In this document: one piece after another, positions 1 to 61,152 of the stretch
How the letters are laid out: the number at the start of each line of letters is the position of its first letter
Position numbering within the stretch: the stretch's first letter is position 1
Assembly (NCBI GenBank): GCA_003971905.1
Contig: RSEE01000117.1
Location: 1-64,000 of the forward strand
Direction: 5' to 3'
Source: Moniliella sp. 'wahieum'
Lineage: Eukaryota
Length of the DNA stretch: 64,000 nt
Position numbers and translations under genes: made by a program
Notes under the pieces: model-generated
Told to the model about the DNA's origin: nothing
Seen by the model: only the letters and a program-made list of their open reading frames with translations
Databases searched by the model: none

Positions 1-1286
1 AAGTAACTGGAGACCATTGGGCCTACGGCCTACGGCCCGGTCTGCTGGGCCACCATCGCCATCTTTTTAGCCACCGTGGCGTCGTCGCTACCGTCTTCTC
101 CAACAGTCATAGAGATAAAAGGAGAGGCTCTATTATAATGGCGTTTTTCGCTGTTTCATGTTACTGATTACCGGTGTCACATGTCACCGATTACCATAGT
201 TACCGATTATAACCGACCGCAGCTACCTCTGCCCCGACGGCCGGCGCCACCGCCAGACTAGGTACGGAGAGTGCTGTGATTCCAATTGTAGGTCGAGGTC
301 GGAGAAATCAAACTTCGATCTCGTCACGCGTCATGCGTCACGCGTCACAGGTATCATGTACACACGGCGGTTATGTCAACAGATGTCACATGTCATGTCA
401 CAACTGTCAAGCATGTCAAACTTGACTGAGGCCTGAAGCTTCAGGCTTAAGATCTGAGAAGCTGAGATATAAGAACTTGAGCGCGTCACCACGGACTCAA
501 CGGTTCAGCGGCTCAGCGTTCAGTAAACGTTCCAACTCTTCCGTACACTCAATGTACTCGATCCTCAGTTTTACAACGTCACACGTCAATATTTACTCAA
601 ATCCGTGGTGATTACTCCTGTACCTGTCGGGTGGCGGCTTGGCATGGCCGAGAATGCATCGATAAAATTTGAAATTGAGTATCGATGAAGATGACAGGGC
701 AAGCAGCAAGAGCTGAGAGCCACTACTGAGCCTGCTGAGCCGGTCGAGAACTGGTCAGCTGGCACGCCCGCCAGGTCGTCGTAGGATAAAAAATGGGAAA
801 CACCCGACGGGACGCAGCGAGGCTGGCTGGTCGTGGCTGCGTCAGCGTCACAGCGTACCGGGCGCGTACCAGGTACCAAGCGGGCAGGGGTAAGTACTAA
901 GTGTGGTCGGAAACCGCTAGGTAGCCAGTACCTAAGGTAAACTAGTAACCGGCAGACTTTGTTGCTGCTTCTAGTGGCGAGAACTACCTCGGGGGCGGCA
1001 GGGGTTGCAGGAGCTGCTGTCTGGTGCCGCACCAAGTGCGCCCGCACGGCGCCCCACTCAGCCCCCGGCGCGGCAGCAGCGACCCTGGCCTGGCGGCCTA
1101 AAAGGCTGCAGGCATGGCGCCTGTGTGTCAGTGGCGGGCGGATCAGAATCGCCTGGTTTTAATGAGCAAAAACGTACTTGAAGCTTCAGTGCAGACGGCA
1201 GCGTCTTCTTTCTTTCATTGCCGTTCCGCCTTTCAACCGCCCTGGCGTGCCACCACACCACCACCACCACCCACCCACCCACCCAC

Positions 1287-4033: not shown

Positions 4034-4110
4034 GACGAGCCGTAAATCGGTTCCTGGTGACGAGCCGTAAATCGATTCCTGGTGACGAGCCGTAAATCGG
4101 TTCCTGGTGA
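4034..4110. repeat. 25-bp tandem repeat x3 (GACGAGCCGTAAATCGGTTCCTGGT)
   Basis: Three adjacent copies, one substitution, no spacers. Confidence 0.9.
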
Positions 4111-5721: not shown

Positions 5722-6075
5722 TCAAGGAACCAGGGGGATCGCCAGGATATCAGGACCCTCCTCTCGCCATCCGGTCCCGTACCCTAGGAAGCGCGTGTGG
5801 ACACGGAGGAACGTGGTTGACATCCGAGCGAGGAACCATTTCCACTGAGACTTAGTAGCCAACTCCTTCCAATGCGCAAACAACTTGCCCGCCGTCTTGG
5901 TGCCGTAGTATCCTCGCGTCGTCAAAACCAGGGGGAAAAACGGCTCTTGAGTGCGTCCCTGGTACTTGGCGTTCTTGTCGCATTCTGCTTGTTCAAGCAG
6001 CCGAAGCAGCTCCTTCTCCCGAATATAAACAGAGCTCATAACGAGCGTATACTAACGTACATCGCATGCGGCTCT
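5722..6075 (-). mobile_element. 3' relic of a non-LTR retrotransposon with restriction-like endonuclease domain (CRE/MoTeR/Cnl1-like)
   Basis: ORF 5722-6039 reads LEQAECDKNAKYQ...FFPLVLTTRGYYG...W...WFLARMSTTFLR, matching the K-x2-KY ... F-x-P-x-V-x-[ST]-x2-G pattern of RLE C-termini. No RT domain is visible, so the element is 5'-truncated. Confidence 0.55.
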
Positions 6076-7887
6076 CTCAGGTTCGTTCACCCAGCCATTC
6101 ACGAACCAGTTTGATCGAAGAAGGTCACTTTTTGGTGTATTAGCAGGCGTGACGCGTGACGCCCTCTGTTGGCTTCCCTTTCGCTTGCTTGGACACTTTC
6201 AGATCTTCTGATATCTCACCTCTCACCAATGACCTGCTCTCCCTTCCTCTCCCCAGGGCGGACACCCCCGCTATGCGATTCGTCCTTCTGGATTAACACT
6301 CGTCAGGACGCATGATGCCTGTGAACATACGTCTCTCGTACAGCCTGGGGCTCTGAGAGAACATGGGAACACCTAACCAACGGCCTGAAGCCTGAGACTG
6401 AACAGCCGGAATGAACGGCCGGAATGAACGTTGAACGTTGAACGCCTGGCCGGTCGGTGATCGGTCGGGGGCCGGGGAGCGTTCAAGTTGAACGATGGTA
6501 GACCGAAACCCATAGTAACGCGTTCAAAGAAAGCGAACGAACACGTGACGACCATCAATGCAACCAGCACGATCCTGAGACGATGCTATCGGAGCTTAGA
6601 TGTGAGAATCTGAGACCTGGTTCATGGCCAAAGTTCATATCACACACTGCTCATCACAGTGCATGAGTAGTGTCCGTAGGCCTGCAGTCGTTCTCTGCCT
6701 GGTCCCGGTCAAGCTTGACCCGGTCGAATTGCAGACGTTCGCGTAACGCTTCAACGCGTCCAACGCATCCCCACCTCACCATCTCACACCACGCTGGTGA
6801 GCGCTTACGCGCACCCACGGCATCACCGTCAGCATGGCGGACTTAGCGCTCAGGCCCAGGTGAGGCCGTCTCGGACTGTCAGGCTTAGCGCTAGTCACGC
6901 TCAAGCGCGCTCAACCCGTCAGCTGACGCTAGTGAGTTCGGCACGTCTAAGAGCGTTCACAAACGTTTCACGTTCAACGTTCAGCGTACGTTCAGCGCTC
7001 AGCCAACGTTCAACGCGCACTCGCCTCAAGCTTCAAGTTTCAAGCTTCACTAGTTCACTCCTCCCTCGCTCTAGTTACTAGTTACTAGTTACTTCTGAGC
7101 AGATCTGTTGAGATCTCGCATGTGACATGTATATGACAGCTCGATGTCGATGACATGCTGGCACAGTCTGGCGCTGCGCGACTGAGTACTGGGCGCTGAC
7201 ATCGTGTGGCAACTGTAACGTGGACCATGGAACACAGGTAACACCGGTAACATGCAATAGCGCGCGGCATTTCGTCACCGCCTCCCTGTCCCAGTGAAGC
7301 GGAGACGGTTCGGCGGTCGAGGTCCCGGAGACTTGCCGGGACATGCCTCGGTAACGCGGAGACAGGCGGGTCGCCGGTCGCCGGACACACTGCCGCAGTC
7401 ACTAGTCATTTCTGCAGCGCAGACGCCTCAACCGACTCAACCCGAAGGCAGCCTAACGGCCAACGACCAACGTCCATTGGAGAAATACGGTCGAAAGCAA
7501 ACAAGATCCAGGAATGGGCCGAATATCATGCGCTATGATTCTACCACCATAGGCGATTCGATGCTACGTGTGGAGTATCGAAAGAGGGAGAAGGGGAGCA
7601 ATCGTTCGTGCACGAAATTTTTTATTCCAGTAAAAATAGTGTGTTCGAAAAGAGAGAAGTGAAAGCATGAATGCGGAAAAGCTCCAGCGCAACGAAGGAG
7701 CAGAGTTAATGGTCCGATGAGCGCAATCAAAGGGGGCACGATGAGGAGAGAGAAACATGGACCTGGAGACTAGAGAGAGACCAGGGGGTATAATGGAAAG
7801 AGAACCGTACGCGAGACGGTAAGGACTGAAAGATAAGGCGTGCGAGCTGCGAAGAGAGGAAGGGAGAGGGGTTCAACCCAAAGATGC

Positions 7888-9252
7888 TCAGGAATACGGC
7901 ATACGACTGGAAAACCAGCGTGAACCAAGGTCCAGGCCCTCAACCGAAGCCAGGGTGAGCTTGGACCATGACGAAGACGGATTGACTCCATTTTCGTATT
8001 CGCCCTGCGCCAAAGGGGTGTGCACATACCCCCCCTCGACCAAGGGAGACGAAGAGGCAATGGTCAGAGTGGGCGTTAGTGCACTTTCCTTGCCCGTCAA
8101 GGGAGTATCGCACCGTCTGTGCCATCGATCTGCATCACTTTCCCGTCGGTCAAGGGCAGGTTGCAGAGCGCCTGGGCCTGAGCCAAGGCATGGGCATACA
8201 AGCGCGAGTTGAGGCGAGGCGCGTAGGGTTCGGTGGCAGGCTGGGACACGGACAGGCTGGGCGGGCGAGACGTAACCCCCTCAGGGCGTTGTAGGCGTAG
8301 TGGGGAGGAGGAAGAACGAGTAGAACGAGTACTGTGAGAATGGGAACGGTGCGCGGTGAAGGTTGAACGAGGAGCGGACGGTACGGGAAGAAAAGTAACT
8401 AGACTGATTCTCTGAGGTGCGATTTGGTGGGCAGCCAGAGCGGACGGAGCCACGGGCGGTGCGGATGCGGTCTGTTGGGCGTCGGTATTAGGACCAGGAG
8501 TGGGGATATAGAGGCTTCTTGAACCCGATTTTGCTCAAGCAAGGCAGCAAAGGACAAGAGTGACTCGTGCTGGACGTTGACGCGGTCTCCGAGGAAGCCA
8601 AACAGCTCCTGCTCCATCATGTTGATGTCGCGTAGCGTGAAGAGACCCTGTCCAACGATGGTCCAAGATTTGTTGGAGTAGGTGTCGTCGCAACTGGCCT
8701 TGCTGGCCAGCATGAGAGCCGAAATGAACAGACGATGACCGCTGCTTCCGCGCGAGGCGGGGAAGCGCAGCTTGAGCCGCTTGAGCAAGTAAAGCGCCTG
8801 GTATATGACAATGGTGGGGAGGCGAGTACGGTGGAGAGCATAGGCGATAAATTGGAGCAGCGGTTTGGGCTGACCGCTAGAGGGACTGCTGCTAGAGCGC
8901 GGGCGCCCCGTGGACGTGGGGGGGTGGACGGGGAGGATGCTAGGGCAGGAGAAGAGGGCCATGACAACTTGTTGACACACCTGGGCAATATCTGGGGCGT
9001 GTTAATCAAGAAGATGAGGTGTCAGTCTCTGACGCATGCTCATTAAGCCCATGTGGGCGCGTCAGATCTCAGACCCCGCAGGCGCTGGGGATGATGCAAT
9101 GGCGGGCGGAGGTTGTGAGTCAGAGACGTACCATCAAAGCCGTACAGATTGAGCGAGGAGGCGGGAGGAGCGGAGACGGGGGCGAGGGCCGCGGGGGCGA
9201 TGGACGAGCCGTGGGTGCTGGCGCGCGGCCGTGTGGGTGGGATGGAGAACAT
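7888..9252 (-). CDS. PCL/Pho80-family cyclin (Pcl12/Clg1-like), one intron, frameshifted C-terminus
   Basis: Cyclin box FIAYALHRTRLP...ALYLLKRLK...RGSSGHRLFISALMLASK..CDDTYSNKSW...INMMEQE. Intron 9131-8992 (GTACGT...CTGAC...CCCCAG) joins YGFD|DIAQVCQQVVMALFSCP. The tail continues through ORFs 8097-8453 and 7888-8100. Confidence 0.88.
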
Positions 9253-10674
9253 GTGGGACAGGGACGCGGCAGAAGGTGTGGGGGGTGGTGGGGACGGGAG
9301 CAAAAGCGAGTGGGATCGGAGCTTAACATATACGTTTGCGTCAACGACGGGTGCGTCGGTGAGTCGCAGGACGGAGGAGGGTGCGCTGCTGCGAGTGGCA
9401 GCGTAGTCAGCAAGGCAGCATAGCCACACAGGCCACCTGCCCGCCACTGCCACGCTGCTGCCACGCCGCTGCCGCACCCCAACCGTCGGCGAACGCCGGA
9501 ACGGAGAGAGCGTGGATGCAGGGCCCTAGTGGGACCACATCATCGATCATCCATGGTCGATGATCGATGATCTGCAATTAGTGATCGGTGACTAAGTGAC
9601 TGCTTGCCGGTCACCGATCACCGGTCTTACCTACTGGACTGGTACGAGTCGATGAGAGTGTTCGGGGCAGCGAGGAGGTGGCGTGGACATGTGACACGTG
9701 AGGATGTGCGTAGGATATGCATGATGTGGCCGGGACGGGTGACCACTGCCCGGTCACAGTGACGCCGCCGTGGAGGTTGTGCGGCATGTTGGGACAAGGC
9801 AGCGGGTGGGCAGGGTTCGGTGGGCAGGATGGGACGCCTCTTGTCCCCTGTGCTCCCGGTCCTTGCTCAATCATTAATCAACGACATCAATCATCGACAT
9901 CAACCAGTATCAATCATCATCGATATCGATCATCGGGTTAGGAAGGCTTAGGATCCCTTTGAACCGCCCCCTGCCACCCCTTCATTTTGGCGTCCGGAAA
10001 GGGTTCTGAGAGGGCAGAGACCACAGATGGAATCCGAGAGTGCTCGGCCGCTCAGCCTCAGTGGAACACAGCAGTACACCCGCGTACTCCCGCGGTACAT
10101 CATTATGTGCGCCAACGAGTCTGCCGCCCCGCGTTCCGTCTCGCCATTTTTTTTGCGATGGCATTCCAATGCAACGCCAGATTCGCGACCTGTGGGTCCA
10201 GGAGCTGTGCATAAGCGCCAAGGGTTGGGAAGAGTGCCACGCCTCTCCGGAGATCTAAGGCCGAGGCTGAGGCCCTCAGGCCTGACGCGTGACGCCTAAC
10301 GTCTAATACTCCGGAGCAGCAGTGGCGTACTCGTCACGCGTCACGCGTCACGTGTCACGCTCAATATCCAACGTTCAATTCAGCGTGTGGCTTGCGGAGG
10401 TGCTGGAAACAGGGTTCAGCGAGCGGCGGCTCAGGCTGAGCGCTCTGAAGCCGCTGAGCCCTGGACGTGGGCCCCGAGCGCCCCCTGAGCGCCGGAGCCG
10501 CTGAGCGGTGGCTAAGCGCTCTGATCCTCAGGAACTGAAGACTGCAGGCGACAAGCGCGCGCTGACTGGCTGTACATTCAGCTGAATTGGAACGTTGAAC
10601 GTTGAACAGTTGAATCAGAGGGCAGTCAGGAAGGTGTTGCAGGATGCGGTGGAACGTGGACCCGAGGTTGTTAT

Positions 10675-10822
10675 AGGTACCGTGGCCCGAAGGGCCATGC
10701 ATCCGCACGACAATAGTCGCCCCCCCCATCCAAGTCCAAGGTGGATGGCCAAATAAGGCCATCGAGCTTCCAGTATCGTTGTGACGACTGTCGCCTCTGT
10801 CCCCGTTTCCTTTTCCTTTTCC
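10675..10822 (-). repeat. Dispersed ~145-bp repeat, inverted copy of 31358-31499
   Basis: The reverse complement shares GGAAACGGGGAC, ACTGGAAGCT, TGGCCTTATTT, GGGGGGCGACTATTGTCG and GCATGGCCCTTCGG with 31358-31499. Confidence 0.85.
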
Positions 10823-13258
10823 TCTTCCCGGTTGTGACCGGTAAACCCCAACGGCCACCTAGTATACGGAGCAATTCATCAATGCAAAAGCACATCAATT
10901 CAAAACACAAGTGCAAGTTCAATACCAAGTGCGTGCCCGGAATAACTATAGTGACTAGTAACTAGCCACTTGTAACATGTAACATGTAAACAGTGACTAG
11001 AGTGGCTAGAATAACGATGTACGTAGTGGCACCCTTTTGGGAAACTCGGGGAATAATATTGACAAGTTGGCAAACCTACCACGGGTGCAGTGCTAGCCAA
11101 GTTCAGGATCTCAGGCTAGCTGTGCTGGTGCCGGGGTCCTCCAATCATGTTCTCACTGTCCCCCCCTCCTTCCCCACGTTGTGACGTGTTGCATGTTGCA
11201 TTTGACATGTTAGCATGATAGTATCTCAGATCTTAGCCCACCTGACGGAAAAGGGCGGCACAAAGGATAGGCACGCGCTTCAGGTCCTTCAGGGTTCAAG
11301 AGTTTCTGAGCCCAGGGCCTCAGAACCTCACTCGAGGCTCTGCCAGCTTGAGGCTGCGAGCTTGACGCTTGAAGCTTGAAGCTTGAGACCGAGGCCAGTT
11401 CAAGCTCAAAAGCTTGAAGTTAGTGTCGGGTCTCCCCTTCACACGATCACCTATGCACTCGGGTGCTCTCAACGCGTAAAACATGAAATCGCGTAATCGA
11501 GTTATCGACCTAATCGGCAATCGATGAATCCAATAATCGCCAATCTAGTACTTGATCGATCATCGTTCCATTAAGTTGTAAATTAAAACCCAACAAGTCA
11601 GTCTGAGACTGAGCGAAGCGGTTGAGGACGTTAACCTGTAAAAGCGGTAAGGCCGGTAACCGGTAACAGTAATGGTCACATGGATCGAAAGAAGGGGAGG
11701 AACGAGGCTATATCTTCGAGCCCTCACCGGTTCGCATGACCCGCATGACCCCCAGGCCTCAGGCCTCATGACCGGCGACCTTTCACGCCCACGCCCCACG
11801 CTACCACAACCTGCCACAACAGACCTCTAACATGTAACACAGACCTGAAATCCTAATAAAAGGCCTAATACCTAGTAACTAGTAACTAGTAACTGTCGAC
11901 CTCGCATATTGCTATCACTGCAATGGGTGCGGGCACTGTGGAACATCATATGGACTAGAAGACTCCAGCAACTGAATGTCTCTGCGAGCTCGGATGGACG
12001 GGAAAAAGCTTTTTGAAATATGGCACAGGGTCGCACACAACCTGATGGGACGGATGTCAACACAATAACTGTCGTATCCGCTCGTGCTACATCTGAGCAA
12101 GCGGGGAAGGTCACGGGTCACTAGCCACTAGTCAAAGGGCCCCGAACACTTCCTGGGGTCTCCACATTGTGGTCTCATAGTTCGGTTGGCGCATCGTTAC
12201 AGAGTTTGACGTTGATTCAGTGGGGCAAAGAAGCGCTGCGCTTAGGCGACCTGTAGAGTTACAGTTCTGTAAAATCTAAAGGCCAACAGAACAAGGCTGC
12301 AAAAAGGTTGACGACTCCAACAACAGTTTTATTAAGCTGAGAACGAGAAAGAAGGACCCACATCAACAGGAACCTCTGCAATTAATTAGCCTCTCTGCGC
12401 TCTGAGATATCTCAGCTCAGATCAAAGAGCCTATCATATATCAGCCCGCCGGGGTCGAAGATCGACCCTTGGCAAAGGGGTCGGTCGTCGGCCGAACCAC
12501 TTCTCTTGAAGACGAGCCTCGAACGCTTAACGACTCAGTGTTAACGATTTGAACTCTCAAAAGCCGTGCGAGAGAAGAGACAAAGTGAAGAAGCGAACAC
12601 AGAAGGGGCGCGCCGTCGGCGGCCCGAAGAATCCTCTCAGCCACATCGTGGTGTATGGTATGGATAAACTGGGGAAAGAGTGCGGAGAGAACCCTGAAGC
12701 ACTACCCGTCACCGCATTGTTGTGAGAACCCTTACCGGTTACCGGCTATACCGGTTGCCAACAGTCTTTGTCCAAATGACGAGCTCCAAAAGTCTCATGG
12801 AGAATGTCGAATGCATATACCAGCTGCCCTCTCGTTGGTGGCGCGCTTGCGGGAACGCCTGGGAACGGGTCTACACATTGTTTGCACCCCTGAGGCTCTG
12901 AAACCAAGGCCAGTGATGTGCTTCCTGATAATCGGTAATCGATAATGGATGGTGCATGATGCACCAGACGGGTGACGTATTCAGGTCTTGAGTACCATGG
13001 AATGTCTTTAATCGCTGCAGCCATGTCGACTTGAAATACCCGTGGACCTGTGAACGGTTGTGCACCCGAAGGAAGATCGGTTTCGCATACAGCTGCTATG
13101 CCGCACAGATGGATGGGGGAAGTCTTAGGCCTTAGGCCCCTTGGGGCTTAGGCGCTTAAGCCTAGGTCTTAGGCCTTTTTGACCACTTATAAGCCCTGAA
13201 GACTCTAAAATAAGCTTGACGGAGAGCTTCGGCCGGCGCTTAGCGCTTACTACGGCTT

Positions 13259-13319
13259 CAGTGTTGTTACAAATATTGTTACAAAACTCTCTTATACAAG
13301 TCACTCTGTCACACCACTG
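13259..13319. mobile_element. Putative 61-bp hAT-like MITE relic
   Basis: Termini CAGTGTTGTTACAAA and revcomp CAGTGGTGTGACAGA match 12/15. Flanks TACGGCTT and TACAGCCT resemble a decayed 8-bp TSD (6/8, both differences transitions). Confidence 0.4.
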
Positions 13320-14289
13320 TACAGCCTGCAGATCAGCCCTCTCGGTACACGTATTCCATAATAGTCTGCTAGTGATTACTAGTTCAGGTACCCAGGTGCT
13401 TATAGGACTCATTAGTTGAGTGACTTTCTCAGTACTGATACTCGGCATACTCAGTTGAGTTCACGCGTTCACACGACTTTCAAAGCAATCATGCATCATG
13501 TTCCTTCAACACGTTCAACAATTTTCAACACGTATACGTCCAATATCCAAGCTTCAAGCTTCAAGGCAAAACCTTCAAGCTTCAAGCTTCAAGCTTCAAC
13601 ACGTCAACGTTCAGATCGATCGTAGAGACGCTGTGGCTTGTCGTTGTTGCTTGCGTCCAGTATAGTTGTGGCAGGCGAGGAGCTGATCGCTTGTCGTGAC
13701 CGAAAGCCTTTCGCCGTCTAAAACTGTTGGTCACGCTCACTAGCCCCCACAAAGACCAGGTCCGGTAGAGGGTCCACGAATGCAAAGCGTTGGAACAATA
13801 ACGTTGTTCGGTGAAATGCGCCCTCTCAGCATCCATAAGGCGAGTATCAATAGCAACACCCTTAATATGAGCCAACTAGACTGCTTTACAAGTTCCAATA
13901 CGCGTCTGTCCACAGTCCCGACTGTATCCGTATGATGTCTGGTCAAAAAGACCACAGACACAACAAGAGTGGCCGGGGCTACGCGACGCCAGATAGGTAC
14001 TACATCAAAGCTGCACCCACCATCAGGAATCCAGTAGCCAAGGGAGTCCAGCAACTTTCCGCGAACTGTGCTGAAGTCAGTCCCGCAGGGGTGGTGAGCA
14101 AAGTGCAAGACTTGCTCCACTACCGCGGTGGCATATCGCCGATAAAGTGAGCAAACCCTGAGTGACAGACAACCGTGCGCCAGCCCAAACTTGGTTCAGG
14201 GTTCGCACGGCCGTATGGAGCGGTGACTCAAGGGTGGCTAATAGAAAGTTGAACGCCCTCACCACCGGGAGGGGCACCCGACTCGTTAC

Positions 14290-14760: not shown

Positions 14761-17396
14761 CAATCCCCTGCCCCACACAGTGAAACAAGCCAGCCCAGTC
14801 TTGACGTAGTACCTAAGGTAAGGAAGACGAAAAGGGGGGGCGTAATGATGGGATCAGCCGGGCTCTCGTTATTCTCCAGCCCTCTCGCCCCGGGGAGGGA
14901 TACCCTGACTCGGCCTATCAACGTCTCCTTTTTACTGTAGGCTAAAGCTTAGACCATGTCGATAAACGCAGTTGTAGGGAAGATGGATGAGATCCCTCGG
15001 TTCAATCTTCTCGCAGCAATTCTTACCAGCCCGGACACTCCATCTGCTCCCTGTTGGTGCCCTCTGCTAATATATATAAAAGGCTTCTCATAGCCTCCTG
15101 TACCTCATCTCCTCTCAGAACCACCTCCACATCATCTTTCTCTCGCTTCCCTTATTGGCATATGCTTCCACTCGCATGTCGCGGTTCAAAACACGTTATC
15201 AACATTGAACACCAGTACCTATTCTGGCCTCTATATATACCTCAACTTGAGACAAGCACTGTACCTTCGGCAGATGCACTAGGGGACGACATTCACGAAT
15301 TCATCCAGCCAATCAAACTCGACTGAGGGATACAAACAAATCACACCTGTGTATTAGTATTTCGCATTTCCACTAATGTGGACATGGGCTGCATACGCTA
15401 CTAATACGGCCATCATATCGAGCTTGACGAGCAGGCACACGAATCTGGCTATCCAATGTTGTATATATACCAAGTGAGCACAACGGTTACAGCATAATAA
15501 TGCAGGTCGTAGGTGCAGAAGAGACATCCTTCTCGAAGACGACTCGGGCACTTTCCGTGTGCTTGTTAAACGGTCTTGAAGGGCACCAGAAAACTTACTG
15601 GCATTGTTGACTCTGGAGTAAAGCAATACTTGTACCCCCCCTCTCCCCCCGCTTCCTGGTGCACTTCTTGCCATTCCTAGGGCCCCTGCCGCTCATGGTA
15701 GGGCTGGATGTGCTCTGGGCGAGAGGGAAACTGGTCGTAATAATACCACTTGGTTTTCCTTCTTTCTACGAATGGTCTTTTCTCCAGTCCCTCTCCTCTC
15801 CTGCAGCACTGCTCAGTGCCAACATGGGGTAACCTACTTTGTTGTAGCCCGCTAGAGCAGGTGGGGTTCCTTCCATTAGTAGTGTGATATATAGCAAGTC
15901 CAATCTATTTTTTCTCCTGGGCTTACGTCCAAAGGAGGCGGCTAAGATGACCCGGGGAATGAGAATAAGCAGGGGAGTGCAGCCTTTACCACAAGCCCCA
16001 TATGGACCTTGGCCACATAGTCAAATGGTTGCATCAGCCCTTATATTCTGTTGTCGGGTCCAGCTATTAGGGACATGATATGGACGCAAAAAGGTCCTGG
16101 GAATATGGCCAACCTTGGGAATGCAGCTTCCGGTGGGTTTCAATGTATCGTTCTAGGAATTGTGCTGCTCTCGAGTATGGGTCGCAATCTCGCGCTTGCA
16201 CACGATTGAGGTGGAGCAGAAAAAGAGATGCCTTGTTTTTCCGACATTAACTTAAAGAGCCATGATCGTTGGCAATATACTAGGTCTAGTGAGTGTGCCT
16301 GTTCGCAGCCGAGCCCGTTGCTACTCTCTTCATCCATGCTTCTTCGGCAGGGATGACATCGTCGAGAGGCGAGATCAAAAGCTAGGACCAAAAAAGAGAC
16401 TGTCACCAGGCGTGTGCATATGAGAGGTGTACCTGCTGTGATCAGACTCTTGCCATGGCCACCGGGCTGCTCAGTGGGAAGGCATGACTATAATCTCTCT
16501 TCTGCCTTTTCCCTTGTGCGGTGTGGAGTGTGTGGGGTGGACGTGTGGCGCGGTAAGCGTCGCATTGAACGTTGATGAGGGGGCGTCGACGCCGTGGGAT
16601 GCGAAACAGTGAGGCAGGCATAGAGGCCAGCCCATACTGACCTGTCGGTGCCCGAGGCGTCAGCTTGGTGCTGAATGGCCCGACCATTTCTCTTCCAATG
16701 GGGCAAATGCGGGGAGACCAAGGAAACATCAAAGCTATAAAAGTTTTTGATCAGTCAGCTCTGGCCCAATTTCACACGCCCAAGTTACTCTCTCTTCCCA
16801 GATCTCTCAGATCTCAACCTGATCTCAGCCCTCATCATCATCCCCTGATGCTTATTATCAGCTCTCATCCTCAGCTCCCATCCTCAATAGGGCGGACCAG
16901 CGTACGGAAGTTCAAGCTACCACGCTTCAAACAGCTCCGAGGCACAAACAGGTCCAGGTTAGGGGACTGTCCGGCTATCCTATCGCTGTTCTATGGCCGC
17001 GCCTCAGTGTTGAGCCTCAGCGTTGAGCAGTCTACCGACCTTGGAGAATAATGTATCTCTCCAGGTGGGTAGCTCTCTTCCTGTGCCCAAGGGCTTCACG
17101 CACCAACGCCTCAACACACATCCAAACGCAACAGCATGGGGGCACATGAATTAACGCAGCCAAGAAACCCCGAGGTAAATGTAGATGCGGAGCATGGGCA
17201 GTCGGGCTCGCCACGAGTGATTGATTGGCGCTCGACCAAAGCCTTGTGGTACACCAGTCCGGGGAAGAGTGGGAACTGGGACGCAGCGGAAGGACCGGAA
17301 GGGCTGGAAGGAGGGTGAGGTTGTAGTTGTTCCGGCCCATGTGGCGATCCAAGGCTGGATGCAACAAAACAAGGGAGCACACAGCTCGTCCGGGGC

Positions 17397-18562
17397 TTAC
17401 TCGCGTTTGAACGCAATCTTCTTGGCTTGGGCGCGGTCCATGCCCTTGTCCATGAGCTTGCGCATCTCCTTCTGGTTCTCCCGGGCTTGGTGGTACGTTC
17501 CTTCGGTGTCCATCACGTAGTCCCACCACCGGAAGGAGGAAGCGTAGCAGCCAATGAACGCTTGGTGGTGGTGGTCGTGGTGGTCCGCCCCCGCCCAGAA
17601 GGGCAGGATGTGGCGAAGACTAAAGGGGAAGTCATAGCCGCTGTGCGAGTCGATGGCTTGGAACAGGCGGCAAACGATCCAGAGGTAGACTGTGACAAGG
17701 TGCACGTTGCCCGCCACTACAGCGAGGAGTAGGGGTCCTCCAATGGTACCCGTGCCCAAGATCAGCGTCTCGGCGGGGTGCGCGTACTCGGCAGCCAAAC
17801 CAAAGGGAGCTGGGAAAAAGTTAGCATGAGAAGCAAAGCAAGCAGAAAGGAAAGGAAAGGAAGGAAGGAAAGGAAAGGAAGGAAGGAAAGGAAAGGAAAG
17901 GAAAGGAAAGGGAAAAGGAAAGGAAAGGAAAGGAAAGGAAAGAAAGGAAAGGAAAGGAAGGAAAGGAAAGGAAAGGAAAGGAAAGGAAAGGAAGAAAAAA
18001 AGTGGGAGGATGACGTACCAGCGTACTCGTGATGCTTCTTGTGAATGTGGCGGGTAAAAGGGTCCCCAGTGGAAAAGACGGTGGGCCCAGTAATGCACGT
18101 GTCCTCGACGACAAAGAAGAGAGCGATCTGCCAGGCAATGGTCCAGATGGAGGGGAACGGGACTTGGTACGTGGCCAGGCCAAGATACTGGCACATGGGA
18201 TGGAACCCCCAAATCTGGGGCAGCTCAACAGTAAAGTGACTGATCAAGACGTATTTGGTGCACTCCCACTGGTCCTTCCACGACGGCACCTTCTCGTCCT
18301 GGATCTTGTACTTGCGCAAGGCCGGGATGTGGTCGATGACGACCCAGGGAGCTGCACGGCCAAAGTACAGGAGCTCGTGGGAACAAAGCTCATAATGCCG
18401 GTAGCGATGATGGGATTGTCCCACCAAGACGTACCAGTTCATCCACCCTTTCTCGAGGAAGTTGAGGCTGGCATAGTCGACGCCCTGGTACAGCTCGGCG
18501 CCGTGGACGTCGACGTGGGGGTTGAGGATGCCCTCGAGGAGCGTGGTGGCGTTGAGCGACAT
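17397..18562 (-). CDS. ERG25: C-4 methylsterol oxidase (sterol desaturase/fatty acid hydroxylase family)
   Basis: His boxes [14 protein letters not shown] and [33 protein letters not shown]. Intron 18018-17810 (GTACGT...GCTAAC...CAG). Frameshifts in exon 1. Confidence 0.95.
17845..17995. repeat. Intronic (GGAAA/GAAG)n purine microsatellite
   Basis: About 150 bp of pure A/G repeat inside the ERG25 intron. Confidence 0.95.
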
Positions 18563-18627: not shown

Positions 18628-19785
18628 GCGATATGCGCCCGCGTGCGTCGCTTCCGGGGTTAAAAAGAGGCGAGGCCGTGTGGCAGCTGGAGGCGCCCAA
18701 GCCCCAGCCGGCGGCAGGCGAAGAACGGGGGGGATTATCGATGAGCGCTGAGGTGACCGGTGATGGTGCTGGGCATTTGACCTTGGGCAGCGCCCGCCGG
18801 CCCGATCTGATGCCAGGCAGCCGCACGGGGCCAGTGTGGGGCGCGGCCAACCAAATGACCTGAGCAGGCCCCTCTGCCCCCGTGCCCCAGCGCACGCGCG
18901 CGCCAGAGCGCCGCCTGTGTCTTGGGTTATTAGTTACTTAACCTTGTTCGCGCCTCTGCGGCCTGCTGCCTTGGCCCACCCGACACTGGCCCCCGGCGGA
19001 GCGTCCCACGCCGGTTCCACGCGGCACGTGATGCATTGATGTGCGTAAGCGCGTAAGGCCTAAGGCCTACGGCGCCGGGCGGCACAAATGAATAAGGAGC
19101 CCGGGATGATTGGTTTGATCTAGCCGCATGAAAACGTTCAACCCAAGCCCCGCGCTGGTCGCTCCCAGCACCAACCAGATCCCATCGATCTTTGATTGTG
19201 TCACTTGCTTGCGGGCCGCGCCTTGGTTGCCATACGGCAACCAGGTCGCCGTTAAGGAGGGGAGCGACGGCAGAGCCACTCTGCCACCCTGCTCGGGGAT
19301 TGAAAAGATATACTGATACCTCGTGTCCGGTGGCTGCTGCAGTGATCCTGGCATCGCACCAGCGGCCAGCGCAACACACTACGCAACCGTCCATATGGCG
19401 CATGCCCACCGTACCGATCGTATCAGCGCCCCAATGCAGTTACCAGGATGCCAGCCGAAACCAGTTCCCGTCTGCATCCGAAAACTCGATGTGCCCACAA
19501 CTCAAAATGCAGGGGCCGGCATCAAGTACCAACGTTCGCCGTTCAACGTATCAACCCCCCTCCCACAACAAAGTAACTACGACTTTAGATACCCCACCCG
19601 CTTGTCACAAAACGTAGAGAGAAAGGCCGACGGCCCCAGATGATGCGATTTTGGGGTGGGACAAGCTGCCTATCGCGGTCAGGGCGTAGCAGAACCCTAA
19701 CAGAGGAGCGCAACCACATGCGCGGGGACAAGAGAAGCACGCAGGACGGCCAAGCACCCAGAACGCCGAGGGAAGCGGAAGCATC

Positions 19786-22452: not shown

Positions 22453-22772
22453 AGCTTGAAGCTTGAAGTTGATAGCAGGATGCATGAAACGTGAAACGTG
22501 AAGCTCTTGAAGCTTGAAGCTTGAAGCTTGAAGATTCAAGGTAAGAGGGCTTGGTCGACTCGACAGAGACCGTATCAGTTGCCTCGCCAGAGGAGTGGGG
22601 AGGAGGGAGGAGGAATCTGTGTCATCTGTGTAGAGAGGAGGAGCGCAAGATGGACTATAGCTTTGTGTTGTGTCATGTCTACCCACATCGACCGCATCCT
22701 TCCACGCGCCCGTACCGGTTACCGACTCTTTCCCTACATATCCAATTCAATTCAACCCTTGGCACAAGGGAA

Positions 22773-22863
22773 TGGACAGGTGCGATCTCCCTAGCCAAGG
22801 GGACTGGACAGGTGCAATCTCGCTAGCCAATGTGACTGGACAGGTGCGATCTCCCTAGCCAAG
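22773..22863. repeat. 32-bp tandem repeat x~2.8 (TGGACAGGTGCRATCTCSCTAGCCAA...)
   Basis: Units start at 22773, 22805 and 22837. Confidence 0.9.
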
Positions 22864-22868
22864 AAACC

Positions 22869-25800
22869 CTACCGCGTACCGCCACTCCCGTCGCCCCTTA
22901 TGCTCTCAAGTGTGTCGCGGGGGGTTGTGGTGGGAGGACGAACCAGCCGAACCGGGCGTTTGGTGGTAGTGTGTAAACCCACGAGGCTTTCCACGAGGTT
23001 TGGGTGTACGCTTAGCCTCCGACGGAGACAGGGACTGAGACTGAGACTTAGACGGAGACTGAGACTTAGACGGAGACTGAGACTTAGACGGAGACTGAGA
23101 CTGAGAGTGAGAGTAAGACGGATCGTTAAGGCCAGAGCTAGGCAACGACGGAGACGGGGTCCTCCTTGATCCTGATCCCTCGGGCTCGTCACGTTTGTTC
23201 CTGTTTGTGGTGTAGGAGACGTAGGGTACGGAGCAGGAAGGATGTTTGGGTAGAAAGCACATCGCGCTTCGTTTCACCTCCTTGGACTCTGCAACGGAAA
23301 GGTACGTCCATCCTCGTGCTCGGGGGCAAGGTAAGCGCGCGGGGAGGAGCAGAGGGGCCAGGATCAAGATCACGGTCAGGATCAAGGTCAAGGTCAGGAT
23401 CAAGGGCGGTAGGACTAGGCTCCTCCTGCTGCGGACGCTTGTCGGCTCGACTCGGGGTGGATGGGGTCCGAGGAGAGGGTAGCGTGTGCCTGTTCCTGGG
23501 CAAGGGCAAGGGCAGGAGCAGGAGCAGGGGGTGCTGTTTGAGCAACAGATTATTGTAAGTGAGCATGAGCTGGTCGAGTCGGACAGCAAAATGGTCGGTA
23601 TCGTGCGCAGCATCGGCACATTGAGTCAAGGCGGAAATGATACCTCGAACCTCATCGTTTCTTCCACCTCCTACCAGGCGCGCACCGGCATGGAAAAAGC
23701 CCGCGCGCATCAAGCCCGGGTCCACTTGTAGGTACCGTTGGGCGGCCATGGTTTGGGCCACCATCGCGATGCGTCCGGCCAACTCGATGGCAGCACGACG
23801 GATGAGCGCACGCAGTTCGTCCGCCCGTTCGCTCTGCTCGGGCACGGCGGGAGGGTTTAGGCCAGCAGGACCGGACGCTAAACCCGCCGGACCCGGGCGG
23901 GTTGGACCCAGCGTGTCCCCCGCCACGGCGATCCCATGTTCGTTCACTACGCAGCTCAACGCGATCCAGGTAGCGGCATAGACCACTTCGATAAAGCACG
24001 CTTGGAACACGGTGGTCAAATCCCAGGACGAGGGCCAAGCTGGGGGCACGCCTACGGCGGCCAAGTGAGCCGCTTTCCATCCATGTACCGCCGCGACGGC
24101 CGTTTCGAGCGCACTGAGTTGGACACCTTGTTCATTGCGCGAGGGGACCAAATGGTAGTGTAGAGCGTAGCGCGTACCTCGGCCAAATCCAGCACGGCCG
24201 CCACCCAGGCACCCCAGCGTCGAACGGCAGGTAAATCGATAGGTACAGGTGCGGGGGACGGGGCGGAGGCTAAATCGGTCCAGACGACACCCGGGACGGG
24301 TGGGGCAAGTACATTGTAATCTTCTCTTCGAATCGCAGGGGCGGTGCGGAACATCAGGCCGTCGACTGTATCGACCAACAAGCAGTGCCACCAGCACAGA
24401 ACGGCCATTGCGTGTCGTGTGGCGGGTAGGCGATCGACAACATGAGCTTGGTGGAGACCCAAGGTGTGCAAGTGTTCGATCGAGGCGAGGAGAAAGGTAC
24501 GTGTGTATCCATCGACATGAGCCGACACAAGCGCGCGTGACGCCGCCGTTCGTTCAGCGACCAAGCCCTGTCTGTCGCCGGGACTCAGGAGCAACTGATC
24601 GCGGGGTACGTCGATTGTGTCCCAGGAACGAGTGCGCCATTGCGGGGTATAAATGTGCATCAAGAGGCACGCCGCTGCGTGTTCCGGGGTGGCAACGACC
24701 AACGCACGACGAATGTCAAACAGTGCCACCGTCCGAGCATGGAGCCAATGGACAATCCGGCTGGCCCCGGCCCGCCGAAGGCGAAAGAGATCGGCTTGGG
24801 TAGGCGTCAAAGTCTCGCCTCGTTCTTTCAGTCGGGTATGCTCGGCGCGGAGAAACGTGGCGCACTCCTTCCGGTCCGAGTCGAGCAACGGCGCATCGGA
24901 AAAGCGAGCGCCCCAGAGAAGCACGATGGCCATCAACGCGTCCGCCTTGCCCTCGGAACTAGAACGGAAAATGCGTTCGAGCTCGGCCCGACTAAACAGC
25001 GGCCAATGCGGGTGGACGTTGGCAAAGAAACTATCGATCGCAGCATTGGCAATCTCGTGCTTGACCCGCGCCGAGGACAGGAAACTGGCCAAGCCAGGGG
25101 ATAGTTCGGGGAGGTGCAGCAAAAGAGGAACGGCCGCGGCGGCACTGGGCCCAACAGCGGGCCAGTCGTTCGAACCTTGCTGTTCGCCATGGTGGTGTCT
25201 AGGCCGGTCAGGCAGCGGAGACCAATCCTCTGCACCACTATCATGGTCCTGGGGGGCCAAGGGGGAGGGAGGGGTGCTAAAGAGGTAGTCGACCAGCTGA
25301 CTGAATCGGTGCTCGTTGGCCTCCACTTGTACGGGGGCGACAGAGGCCGAGGAGAGGGGAGGAGAGGGAGAATGGACGCGTCTCCTTTGGGCCGGAGGGG
25401 TCGGGGAATGCCTTGAACCTAAGGGCAAAGGCAACGACGAGAGAGGGGAGATGTAGAGGTAGAGGTGGTGGGCAGGGCAGCTGTCTGAGCAGGCGGGGAG
25501 GCTGTGCCCCCCCTTCTACTGACCTCTGCCGGGCTAGCAGGCTCTGGCCCGGGACCACGCGATGCGCTACTGGACCGAGGAAGTTTGGCAGGTTTTCTGA
25601 AAGGACGACGAGACACGTTAGTTTGGGGCATACAACATGAGCCAGGAAAATGGTGTGGTGACAACGGGGTATGGTTCCTACCACAGCCAACGTACATGCA
25701 GGGGATCCGTCGTGCTGAACAAAGTGTACACTTGGCTTTACCGGGGGTACGACAGCAGCGCACCTTGCGCCGCCGACAAGCATCGCACGCCGAGTTTTGT

Positions 25801-26945: not shown

Positions 26946-29713
26946 GCGACTAGGCGGAAGGCTGGCGCATAGGCGAGCGGTGGAGTGGGGCGGAGTGGGG
27001 CGGAGTGACGGAGGCAGAGTGGTGTCGAGGCAGAAGAAGAGGGCTTGGGCTGCTCGGCTGGGGGAAGAAGGTGGGCCGTCCAACAAGACAGGGAAGCTCG
27101 CTTGAGGCACTAGGTCTTGGGGGTTGGGTGACGTCAAGTTAGGCCGTAGGCCGTACGGCAGTAGAAGGGTGCCTTGTGCCACCGCTCTGCAAGCCCAGAG
27201 AGCAGTACGCCACGGTGTCTCTCACTCCTCAGAGTCTCAGATCTCAAATCACCCCTCTCACACATCCAAGCTCTTCCCCGATCGGCCCTCGGCATCATCT
27301 AGACCATCATCACCCATCCCACGTGGCACACAGTGGCTGGCGCCCGCCCCATCGAGTACGCCTATAACATCGACCCTAGTACACTCAGGATACAGGACGT
27401 ACTCAGTTGAGTACTCACAGGGTTACTAGTTACTATTAGCTGGTTACTGGTGGTACTATAGAGTGCTAGCTGCTCACCATGACGTGCATGATGAGTGATA
27501 ATCGTTAATCGTTAATTCACGCTGCCGCACGGAGGGAGAGTTGGACGTTGATCGTGACGGAGTGATCAAGATCGGAGGGTGTGGATGGAGAGATGGAGGG
27601 AACCCTGGGAGCTTGGTCGGAGCTTAGTTAGCGCTTGTTTTGCAGCCTGGAATTGCAGCGTTCCCCCATTCAAAATGGTCCCTTTTTGGGAAGCTTGAAG
27701 TTTGATGGAGCAAGGGAGCGTGGAGCCACACTACGCCAGGCCATGCCTGGGCGTGCTGCCTGCGCCCACTAGGCCCTGTTAGGCCTGGGATCTAAAAGAT
27801 CAATAGGACGGCCCCTCCGATCGGCCGTCCGTCGACACAGCAGGGACGTCGATCTCCAGTCTTCTTCAGCCGCTCCAGGGAGGCAATCACATGTCACACT
27901 CATCACCAGGGACTTGCGCCTGTCACATGTCAGTGCACCCGTGCCGCACCCAGCCGTATGTGCCCTCTTGAGTGAGTTCAACGTTGTACATTTTACGTTA
28001 CCGGTTACCGCGTTACCGGTTACCGGTTACCCATTTTCCCGTTGAATTTCTTGCAAGCATATGGGATCTCGCATCCCAGTCAGACAGCTCCAGGGCCTGT
28101 GTCCAGCTCCACTCGCCCCTCGCCACTCGCCACTCGCCACAACGCCACAACGCATCGCTCTCGTGCGCTCTCCAGTCTCCGCTTTCGTTTCCGTATCGAT
28201 CGCGCACCGCCCCACCGCCACCCGCTCTGTGGCAGAAAAAAGGGTCAAACGGGGTCACAAGGGTCGTCGGTGCCAAGGGGGGTCACCCATCACGTGTCAC
28301 CCGTCATCGATATCCACGACCCAGGGTGGCCCAGAGGACTCGTACGCAGTACGCAGGGCTCAGTACCTCAGTACGTCCAACGAACCGTCAGCGCCTCAGT
28401 ACCAGTACTGCGACTCAGTGCGCAGCACCAGTACTTGCATTTGTACACAACACTCTCCTCAGTACATGCCCAGTGCCCAATCCTCAAAGAAGTACTGGAA
28501 CGTACTCAACGTACTCAACGTACTCAACGTAACGTTCAATTGAATATTGAACGCCACCCGAGACCCTCCCCTTTCTTCGGCAGCGCCTTCCGCTGCCCTG
28601 GAGGAGCGGGAAGAAGCCTCTCGGCGGCAGGGCAGACCGACTGCTACGTATACTCTGCCTGCAGCAAGTCCTCAGGCCTCCGTACCTCCAGCACCTCCAC
28701 AACCTCCAGCTCCCCATCCTTCACCAAGGCCGATGGGCGCATCAAGCTGCACACGGGTGCTTAGCCAAAGCAGGCCAAAGCCTGAGCCAAAGGCTGCCTA
28801 CACGCCAAGCGTTTACTAACTTAGTAGCAAAGCTTAACAGCGCTTACTGGATCATATACTTGTGCCCGCAGCGGGCACAGTGCTGTGTGGTGGGGGGGAC
28901 CGTCGGCTCCTGGACCTGCCTGGACCCATGCGCCGGTGCACGCGTGCCGTGACGCCAGGGCCCAGACCCCAGCGACCCTATAACATGTAACGGCGAACCG
29001 GAAAACGTTAAAACTTGTTCCACCGTACGACACGTTGACGAGATTCAGCAGTTCGCACATTAACCCCCGTTTGTTAACCCTCCGTCACATGTCACAGCCT
29101 GTATAACACGTTTCTACTACGGTCCGATAATCGATAACCCAACGCTCAATACGTTCAACGACCCAACGTCCAGCGTCCAATAACGTCCAAAACGTTCAAC
29201 TAGGGGAACGCGCAACCCGGTGCTGCCAATTTCCAACCGAGCTCCGTTTTTTTTAATGTATTTTGAACGTGTATCCAACGCAAACCACCGAGATGGTGGT
29301 TGCGGCACACACAAAAGGGCATAACGCGCAGCGCGTAAGCGCTGCTCAGCTTGAAGGTTGATCGAGGATCCGAGTCTGAAGGACGTCGGTGCTTCAGCGC
29401 TTGGGTTATCCGGGTTTTCCATTGTGAAGCTTGAACCCTCCTCAGCACCTTTGGACCTTATATTAGCGTTGCACACGAAGCGCGTCAGCTGAGATGCTGC
29501 GTCGGTTTTTTTCCCTGTGGAAACATGTGCAAGCGCAAGTGTCGGTTAGCGGCTGTAGTGGATTCAATATTCACCATGCTCCATTGGTGCATGCATGATG
29601 TATGATGTGTGATGTATGGTGTCTTCTGTGTAAGAATGGGCAAGGCACGAGAGGTACGTGCGGAGCGGTCGATGGGTGAGGACGAGGAGTCGATCACCGG
29701 AGAGCGCTCAGAA

Positions 29714-29823
29714 AGCTGTCGTCCGTTAACGCCGGGATAGCTACGAGCTTCCAATGGGTTAAGGACTGAGAGCTGTCGTCCGTTGGACCGGGATAGCTAC
29801 GAGCTTCCAATGGGCCAAGGACT
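29714..29823. repeat. ~57-bp tandem duplication
   Basis: AGCTGTCGTCCGTT...CCGGGATAGCTACGAGCTTCCAATGGG..AAGGACT at 29714 and 29771. Confidence 0.9.
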
Positions 29824-30871
29824 AGTGCAACAGAGTAAACTGTGCACGAAAGAGAAGGGAACAGTCAGAGTAGCTTCTTGTAAGCTCCTGACGCTAGTCC
29901 AATCTTGAGTGCAACAACGGGAAAAAGGAAAGGGAAAGGGGACGCGAACGCAGCTAATGCTGCCGCGCTCAGGAGGCGGAAAGTCGAGATAGCTTCCGCT
30001 TACCAGTGGCGTGACCGACAAAGTCGATGATTTGTAATAGAGAGTATCACACATCCGCTAACATTCTGAATCCTTTTGGGCTTCCAGCTTTAAATTTGAG
30101 CGCACGTTTAAGGTTTGCCCCAATCACGGATTCAGACAGGGTGTGCATGGGTCCTTTTAGGGGCCTTAGTCTGCCTTCGTTCAGCGCTCAGCTCAGCCAG
30201 GCGCAGCCTTTGTAGGCCTTATTGTAGCCTAGGGCGCTTATTAGGGTTCTACGATCCTAATATCTCAACCCAGATCTCGAGCTTCTCAACACGCCAAAAA
30301 TCTTATGATCGTGACGCGTAATCCCATTGTGCATCTGCATCATGCATCAGCGTTGAGTACGTTTACCGGTTACCGGTTACCGTTTGCCAATCCCAAGCAC
30401 AACTCTATTTCCTACGTGCGAATTGCTTTGTTGGACCCCTCACGCTGAGGCCCAGGCTCAGGGCTTCAGGGTCCTCATGACCTCAGGCCTCATGTTTTTC
30501 AAGCTCCGCGTCGGAAATCATCGATCATCGATCACTAGCACTAGCGATCTATTGCACTGCATCATGCATCAAGCTTCAAGCTTCAAGCTTCCAGCTTCGC
30601 ATGCCCCCATGTCACATGTCGCACTGGCGGCGCATCTGTGCCACAGGTATGTACGTACTTCGTACACCCTTCGGCCGAACAAGGCCGACAACTGAAGCCG
30701 AGAGCCTACCACTTAATATACTGTTGGGCTCACACAAGAGGGTAAAAGGACACTGTCACGGGCGGGCGCCGCCAGGGGCCTGCCTGGGGTTTTTGGGGTA
30801 CAATCCTTAGGCGACGGTAGGTCGACTCACGGTAGTTTCGGGCTTAGGCTGGTTGGTGTGTCCGAGCGGAG

Positions 30872-37102: not shown

Positions 37103-37754
37103 GGCCAAGGCTGGCTGGCCCGTGGTTTGTGCCACGCCTCTCGTGCCCCACGGCACTCTCACGAAGCTGGTGGTACTATGTGCATTGCATGTGACTCGTG
37201 ACTCGACTGGACAGCCCTCTGGCGCGGTCGCATTGGCGCGTGGGGAGGGAGCGTGAGAGACACGGAGGGAGGTGTGCGCGAAGGGCAGGGGGGACGGAGG
37301 ATGTAGACTCTGGCGCTCTGCACAACACAGAGGGAGGGCGTGCGGGGCAGAGGTGGAGCGGCGGCAGGCAGCGGATGGGAACGGAAGCAGGCGGCGTGCT
37401 GGGCAGACAAAGACAGGGGGGTGGCGGCGTAGCTGGTGGGACGTGCGTCAAGAGCTAGCTTCGCTTCATGTGAGATCGAGAGAGGAGTAATGATGGACCC
37501 CCAGGCGGCAGGACAGTCGTCTCTGCGATGCGCCATCGATAATCGATAACCATCGTCATCATCAATCAATGGGTTAGGGCGCGGGTGTCCCATGGGTTAA
37601 AGCATTAAGCACGTGCGATTCGATCCAAGTCCGTCGGCCTGCCCCCCGCACAGGGCCAGTCTCCGCGTCGTCAGCGGCTGATTTGGATTGCCGGCTGGAC
37701 GTGTTGCATCCGCCAGGCCATCTCCTACTACTTGTCGCTTCGCTTGCCGCTTGC

Positions 37755-37814
37755 CGCTTTGACCTTGACGCTTTGACCTTGACGCTTTGACCTTGACGCT
37801 TTGACCTTGACGCT
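37755..37814. repeat. 14-bp tandem repeat (CGCTTTGACCTTGA)x4
   Basis: Read directly in the MET2 5' region. Confidence 0.9.
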
Positions 37815-37863
37815 TGCCCCCCCCTCCCCTCCTCCTCTTGCCATCGCCACCGATCCGATCAGC

Positions 37864-61057: not shown

Positions 61058-61152
61058 GGCAATGTGCCCGAGCGGTTAAGGGGATTGATTCGAATGCCTT
61101 TCGAAGTATCAATTAGGCTTTGCCTGCACAGGTTCGAGTCCTGTCATTGTCG
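61058..61152 (+). tRNA. tRNA-Ser(CGA) with ~13-nt intron
   Basis: Acceptor stem GGCAATG/CATTGTC with G73; D-arm TGCCCGAGCGGTTAAGGG; anticodon stem ATTGA/TCAAT with loop TT-CGA-A|intron|A; long variable arm AGGC-TTT-GCCT; T-arm ACAGG-TTCGAGT-CCTGT; T-run terminator at about 61157. Confidence 0.93.

Follow-up and report, generated by a model that had tools for sequence, protein, structure and literature searches.

Within the 64-kb window, by which we mean the whole stretch of DNA analysed here, TNA trinucleotides stand in lattices with a 7-bp step, a pattern that is confirmed to be far from chance. The unit event behind these lattices is a +7-bp insertion at a TNA, made up of a direct copy of five bases and an inverted copy of two; that bases were gained rather than lost is what the structure, taken by itself, suggests. 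In our estimate there is about an even chance (a probability of roughly 0.5) that the lattices are scars of a cut-and-paste transposon with a 7-bp, TNA-centred target duplication, left through hairpin opening, chained, and later altered by substitutions. The mechanism would most likely be of a known kind, that of P-nucleotide excision scars, in an unusually uniform, dense, 7-bp and TNA-centred form; a literature search turned up no account of lattices like these.

The window is eukaryotic, with a G+C content of about 58%, and Pfam matches on its ORFs identify genes for a GATA factor, a cyclin, a Zn2Cys6/Fungal_trans regulator, NDUFS1 and a LIP lipase, among others. The two proteins closest to NDUFS1 are 92% and 89% identical to it, and its best named relatives belong to Ustilaginomycotina (Testicularia cyperi, 76% identity; Tilletiaria and Ustilago, 75%). 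The source fungus is of a smut-related lineage.

A seven-base TNA lattice in non-coding DNA

At a period of 7 bp, the window contains 38 runs of at least three TNA, 15 of at least four and three of at least five, against 5.2±2.1, 0.34 and 0, respectively, in 50 dinucleotide-preserving shuffles. Periods of 4, 5 and 8 to 11 bp give four to eight runs of at least three TNA and none of at least four. Periods of 6 and 12 bp give 15 and 17 runs of at least three, many of which are explained by long hexamer arrays such as those at 1977-2241 and 23021-23112:

1977-2241, hexamer/dodecamer array of the GCTCAG type, 44 copies, within an ORF carrying a GATA zinc finger
23021-23112 and 23359-23405, hexamer arrays GACTGA and TCAAGG with TNA 6 bp apart, in an ORF-rich stretch without Pfam match

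The array at 1977-2241, probably a coding low-complexity repeat, raises the TNA counts at period 6. Among the 16 XNY patterns TNA is the sole standout, with a normalised count of 9.3 versus 1.0-3.9 for the others. Seven-base periodicity is present in most non-coding tracts, for example 1-750, 6000-7250, 10000-13750 and 27000-30750, and tracts with three-base periodicity are free of it.

Nearly half of the links in which two TNA enclose four bases carry a palindromic spacer (124 of 259, 48%), as opposed to 4.2-7.9% for the other 15 XNY patterns and 6.3% of all 4-mers in the window. Of the palindromic links, 69 come from the 165 links in runs of just two TNA and the remaining 55 from runs of at least three; where a neighbouring spacer is identical, 34 of 38 links are palindromic. 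The preliminary description had drawn attention to mixed arrays, in which the tetramer changes while the TNA register is kept, and had asked whether their spacers are more palindromic than chance would make them. They are: palindromes make up 21 of the 56 spacers that lie in a run of at least three TNA and are unlike both of their neighbours (binomial p = 8e-10 versus 8%). Spacers of 4 nt are the dominant length; longer ones are minor variants. Spacers of 5 nt are palindromic around an extra central base in 15 of 123 cases and spacers of 6 nt in 8 of 147, an enrichment of only about two- to three-fold. Perfect heptamer tandems consist of a TNA plus a 4-bp palindrome in 37 of 69 cases, poly-C runs making up two of the 69, and every one of the 37 heptamer tandems that bear a 6-bp palindrome is of the A....T type. 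Palindromes of at least 10 bp are barely enriched, with 77 found versus 67±8 in shuffles.

The unit event

The event takes two mirror-image forms. In form L, ab-TNA-xy would become ab-TNA-xy-y'x'-TNA-xy, and in form R it would become ab-TNA-b'a'ab-TNA-xy. Clean minimal examples are as follows:

891-902, form L, TAAGT AC TAAGT, with five bases direct and two inverted
9062-9073, form L, TCAGA TC TCAGA
54899-54910, form L, TCACT AG TCACT
7397-7408, form R (the mirror), AGTCA CT AGTCA
16805-16816, form R, TCTCA GA TCTCA, with an identical product at 27235 and at 50580

Identity runs of length 5 at period 7 have either their first base exactly at the T or their last exactly at the A. Of 70 TNAxy..TNAxy repeats with a 2-nt junction, 55 carry the reverse complement of xy as that junction (20 of 29 for non-tandem repeats), whereas in control repeats without TNA this holds for 17 of 153, about the chance level. 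Scored on both strands, 143 junctions of 2 nt comprise 99 with left P2 and right P0, ten with P1 on each side, nine with P0 and P2, and 25 others, and plain 5-bp duplications without a junction number 13 (both strands). A 5-nt direct copy lies on at least one side of 101 of the 124 palindromic links and of 53 of the 69 isolated ones; the latter divide into 22 that fit form L only, 25 that fit form R only, six that fit both and 16 that fit neither, the mirror forms being equally common. Isolated non-palindromic links obey the flank rule in 26 of 96 cases. By eye, about half of the palindromic 5-nt spacers obey it as well.

In 100 of 124 links the central N is a direct copy, and in nine it is the complement; in a complement-N test for long inverted tracts, the 24 unequal N resolve into nine complements, ten transitions and five others, with no clear signal. 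All 16 kinds of palindromic tetramer occur as spacers, C or G occupies the N in 71% of scars versus 73% of all TNA in the window, and 40 inferred ancestral sites display no further target preference beyond a mild C/G excess just after the TNA. The product is almost always exactly +7 bp. Scar density is 124 per 64 kb, with a maximum of 19 per 2 kb, and the long intergenic tracts beside regulator genes are where the scars cluster; although 24% of the window lies in Pfam-supported ORFs, these hold only three of the 124 palindromic links, each at an ORF edge.

Mixed lattices and their probable growth

The lattice at 427-457, from which this analysis set out, reads as it was first described, with five TNA exactly 7 bp apart and palindromes in three of its four spacers. 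The perfect palindrome noticed within it is indeed present and measures 16 bp (431-446), not 14 bp. The lattice and its surroundings comprise:

427-457, mixed lattice of TGA, TGA, TCA, TAA and TGA with spacers GGCC, AGCT, GGCT and GATC
431-446, 16-bp perfect palindrome inside this lattice, the longest perfect one in the window
322-348, neighbouring TCA CGCG array with one TGCG variant, a single-base decay
458-520, TNA grammar continuing in 8-bp steps
497-517, 8-bp scar variants TCA ACGGT TCA (497) and TCA GCGGC TCA (505), with an extra base at the palindrome centre

The 16-bp palindrome is a by-product of TGA-AGCT-TCA standing between GGCC and GGCT, and the region, taken as single-stranded DNA, folds no better than its shuffles (z = -0.83). 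Further lattices, among them the four other arrays that had been cited at the outset and whose sequences were found as written, are:

10276-10306, mixed lattice TCA GGCC TGA CGCG TGA CGCC TAA CGTC TAA, four events plus five substitutions
10952-10996, lattice with CTAG and CATG spacers and one broken TNA (CCA)
7026-7053, TCA AGCT array with one AGTT variant, a single-base decay
30558-30591, two-type lattice with TGCA spacers to the left and AGCT spacers to the right of one TCA
18735-18751, two-type lattice TTA TCGA TGA GCGC TGA, two events plus two substitutions
54968-54984, two-type lattice TGA ACGT TCA AGCT TCA, two events plus two substitutions

The replacement of a TNA by a single CCA within 10952-10989 is likewise as first reported. 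At 10276-10306 the left spacer ends in CC, the left flank, and a clean TGACG CG TGACG makes up the CGCG link.

Such lattices could be built by repetition of the unit event. Each scar would recreate TNA sites, so that further hits would add 7 bp in register. A hit within a palindromic lattice would reproduce the unit of that lattice and lead to uniform arrays, and a hit at the left or right edge would mirror the left or right flank, respectively, and lead to two-type lattices. From one seed, at most two palindrome types would be expected, the left type followed by the right type, and mixed lattices would reflect two-way growth from a seed together with about 10% later substitution. The lattice at 30558-30591 fits a seed CA-TCA-AG grown in both directions. 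Among 56 neighbouring spacer pairs, 18 are identical palindromes and 36 are non-identical. Five pairs join two different palindromes, and all five differ by a symmetric change at two positions, a kind of change rarely expected from independent decay, beside 14 single-base differences. Of the five lattices in which two different palindromes adjoin, those at 10276, 18735, 30562 and 54968 fit the seed model, and in these four six of eight flank predictions are borne out on hand reading.

The lattice at 427-457 holds three palindrome types and is most likely an old chain of several insertions, blurred later by point mutations. Its history under the event model, reconstructed by reverse parsimony, takes four insertion events and at least five substitutions, and by hand count about seven substitutions would be needed to derive it from a decayed uniform array. 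This lattice alone does not tell the models apart, whereas the statistics for the whole window do. Later divergence is about 9-10% per site and is alike at N and xy sites. Non-palindromic links that lie one mismatch from a palindrome number 76, whereas random tetramers would be expected to give about 54 (6/16 of n = 135), an excess that fits decay by later substitution.

A candidate mechanism

A cut-and-paste element inserting at ab-TNA-xy would generate a 7-bp target duplication centred on the TNA. At excision, the transposase would leave hairpins exactly at the ends of the flanks, each of which host enzymes would then open at a distance of 2 nt from the tip. Nicks in that position would fall precisely at the TNA borders and yield 4-nt self-complementary overhangs, from which ligation of the top strand would give form L and ligation of the bottom strand form R. 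The predicted product is as long as the kept 7-bp duplication, the inverted end of the other copy taking the place of 2 nt. Since a single strand would be ligated, and either strand could be, both mirror forms are expected, matching the equal numbers observed.

We infer the agent itself, as a transposon or transposase is absent from the window. A scan for inverted-repeat elements with a TNA-centred duplication, covering duplications of 5-9 bp, found none in the window, and its output consisted only of lattice-to-lattice matches and two weak, chance-like pairs (14985/26864 and 51200/52347). A transposase domain was found by Pfam in none of the 233 stop-to-stop ORFs of at least 110 aa in the 64-kb window. 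Also speaking against a transposon, the density is very high if the scars stem from excision, the uniformity of the product far exceeds that of known footprints, and palindromic links in runs of at least three TNA are more numerous than random re-hitting would give, according to a rough estimate; the arrays probably gain copies by slippage or local hopping.

A more specific proposal is that the agent belongs to a new family of hairpin transposons with a 7-bp duplication and near-obligatory excision, or is a domesticated nuclease derived from such a family, which repeatedly writes TNA-palindrome units into promoters. We regard this as unlikely, and if it were correct, one stereotyped mutation would be a main source of intergenic growth and turnover and would seed most heptamer tandems.

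Comparison with known systems

Several features of the scars have counterparts among elements that form hairpins on their flanks, a chemistry established for hAT, Transib, RAG1 and a MULE (PMC5499845). Footprints of Ac/Ds (hAT) in fungi involve flank hairpins, P-nucleotides and remnants of the target duplication (PMC5873905); the same paper lists 28 footprint types among 128 revertants in Candida albicans and describes palindromes that have at their centre the complement of the base adjoining the element. Basidiomycete cut-and-paste elements with 7-bp duplications include hAT7 of rust fungi and Kyakuja of Laccaria, and Harbinger is given a 3-bp duplication (PMC12730594).

The scars resemble the hAT footprints of plants, budding yeast and Candida albicans in combining duplication remnants with short inverted P-nucleotides. 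The remnant has its equivalent here in the 5-nt copy of 101 of the 124 palindromic links, and the P-nucleotides in the inverted xy junction (55 of 70, versus 17 of 153 in controls). However, canonical hAT elements duplicate 8 bp, whereas the step here is 7 bp, a length fitting hAT7 only; Ac/Ds palindromes are odd, whereas those described here are even (xy|y'x'), with odd 5-nt spacers as a minor class (15 of 123); and hAT footprints are heterogeneous, whereas here one product dominates, and no element is present in the window. Both hAT7 and Kyakuja are basidiomycete elements with the 7-bp duplication length that the transposon model needs, but they are described from Pucciniomycotina and Agaricomycotina rather than from smut relatives, and the window holds no copy of either.

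V(D)J coding joints and Transib share with the scars hairpins placed exactly at the flank end and even P-nucleotide palindromes. The target duplication of Transib is 5 bp, equal to the 5 nt directly copied here. A joint of the Transib/RAG type nevertheless differs from what is observed, in that the P-nucleotides derive from one flank (99 left-only junctions versus nine right-only and ten one-plus-one), and after a Transib-like 5-bp duplication, symmetric opening would destroy the second TNA, which here is intact. The 3-bp duplication of PIF/Harbinger elements is of the TNA/TWA type, and we know of no flank-hairpin chemistry for PIF/Harbinger or IS5-type elements; a 3-bp duplication does not fit, as the copied stretch also takes in the 2 nt after the TNA in 53 of 69 isolated events. 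Heptamer microsatellites are alike in being tandem 7-bp units of non-coding DNA, but differ in that the unit here is limited to a TNA plus a palindrome and that the minimal events are not simple duplications.

A scan of metagenomes for three copies of the commonest unit gave at least 121 loci, nearly all of which lack the wider grammar. Among the matches listed, only two short contigs show several different TNA-palindrome units, and their source organisms may share the same process:

L067, 1-1370, units GGCC, AGCT and CGCG
L097, 1-621, units AGCT, AATT and GATC

Alternative explanations

The lattices could also have arisen without any mobile element, if a host nuclease such as a domesticated transposase cut TNA with a 7-bp stagger and formed hairpin ends, repair then writing the scar. 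The absence of both an element and a transposase from the 64 kb, the very high density and uniformity of the scars, and their concentration in long intergenic tracts next to regulator genes are all in keeping with such an origin. No candidate gene for the nuclease is seen in the window either, which is a small sample of the genome, and we know of no host process that yields a 7-bp TNA scar, the literature search having likewise returned none. We judge a host nuclease unlikely. Replicative fold-back copying of the local flank at each step, by template switching, was the mechanism put forward in the preliminary description. The inverted copying that it called for is real, the second half of the tetramer in minimal events being the reverse complement of the 2 nt after the TNA, which reappear behind the next TNA, so that the inverted bases do mirror the local flank, and the 16-bp perfect palindrome at 431-446 would suit it too. 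The extent of the copying is another matter, as only 2 nt are inverted while five are direct, N is mostly copied directly and seldom as its complement, palindromes of at least 10 bp are barely enriched, and a 2-nt fold-back would lack a stable primer. With 2 nt inverted and 5 nt direct, hairpin opening with P-nucleotides at a duplicated target is the best fit, and replicative fold-back seems to us quite improbable.

Another reading takes the lattices for heptamer microsatellites, in which slippage expands the units and point mutations give the mixed look. It draws on the 18 identical palindromes and 14 one-base differences among the 56 neighbouring spacer pairs, on runs that are commoner than random re-hitting predicts, and on the derivation of the lattice at 427-457 from a decayed uniform array by about seven substitutions. 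The earlier argument that mixed arrays exclude slippage went too far, since a single base separates the two spacers in 14 of the 36 non-identical neighbouring pairs, a difference that fits decay. Slippage nevertheless leaves unexplained why 37 of 69 heptamer tandems consist of a TNA plus a palindrome, why 5 nt are direct and 2 nt inverted in 47 of 69 isolated events, why five neighbouring pairs join different palindromes, and why the effect is absent at other periods and in other XNY patterns. Moreover, a whole-unit tandem duplication would match both sides, whereas isolated links are mostly one-sided, so slippage is already contradicted as the origin of the units; it may have lengthened arrays, and as the full explanation we consider it very unlikely. 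Least probable, to the point that we would be surprised to see it upheld, is that the motifs are selected cis-regulatory sites of a dimeric factor (A-palindrome-T type) rather than mutational scars. Their position in intergenic tracts adjoining transcription-factor genes would suit regulatory sites, but all 16 tetramers and all four N occur at background frequency, and a one-sided direct copy of 5 nt has no rationale in a binding site. Selection could act on the retention of scars.

Implications

If excision scarring by a cut-and-paste element is the correct reading, one mutational process would account for no fewer than 124 recognisable scars within the 64 kb, which take up about 1.4% of the window, almost all in non-coding DNA, and the same process would explain the peculiar single form that heptamer tandem repeats take in this genome. 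The scars would then preserve a legible record of what a transposon or nuclease has done in DNA where no element is left, and their roughly 10% of later substitution would provide a rough internal clock. They would also offer a route by which promoters acquire palindromic hexamers and stop codons in several frames, and what was first described as a phase-locked lattice would become a testable history of repeated hits.

Other features of the window

Features outside the lattices include a tRNA gene whose anticodon could not be named by ARAGORN, several tandem repeats and the NDUFS1 gene:

61058-61152, + strand, tRNA gene with an intron, 95 nt (Rfam, 45.6 bits)
37750-37815, 22768-22863, 29714-29823 and 4034-4110, tandem repeats with periods of 14, 32, 56 and 25 bp, respectively, in non-coding tracts
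17845-17993, (GAAAG) pentamer array of about 30 copies, overlapping a stop-to-stop ORF with a fatty-acid hydroxylase match
34982-37041, + strand, NDUFS1 in two overlapping frames (34982-36439 and 36091-37041)

The tandem repeats with periods of 14, 32, 56 and 25 bp are not of the TNA-palindrome type. Between its two frames, NDUFS1 has an intron or a frame shift.
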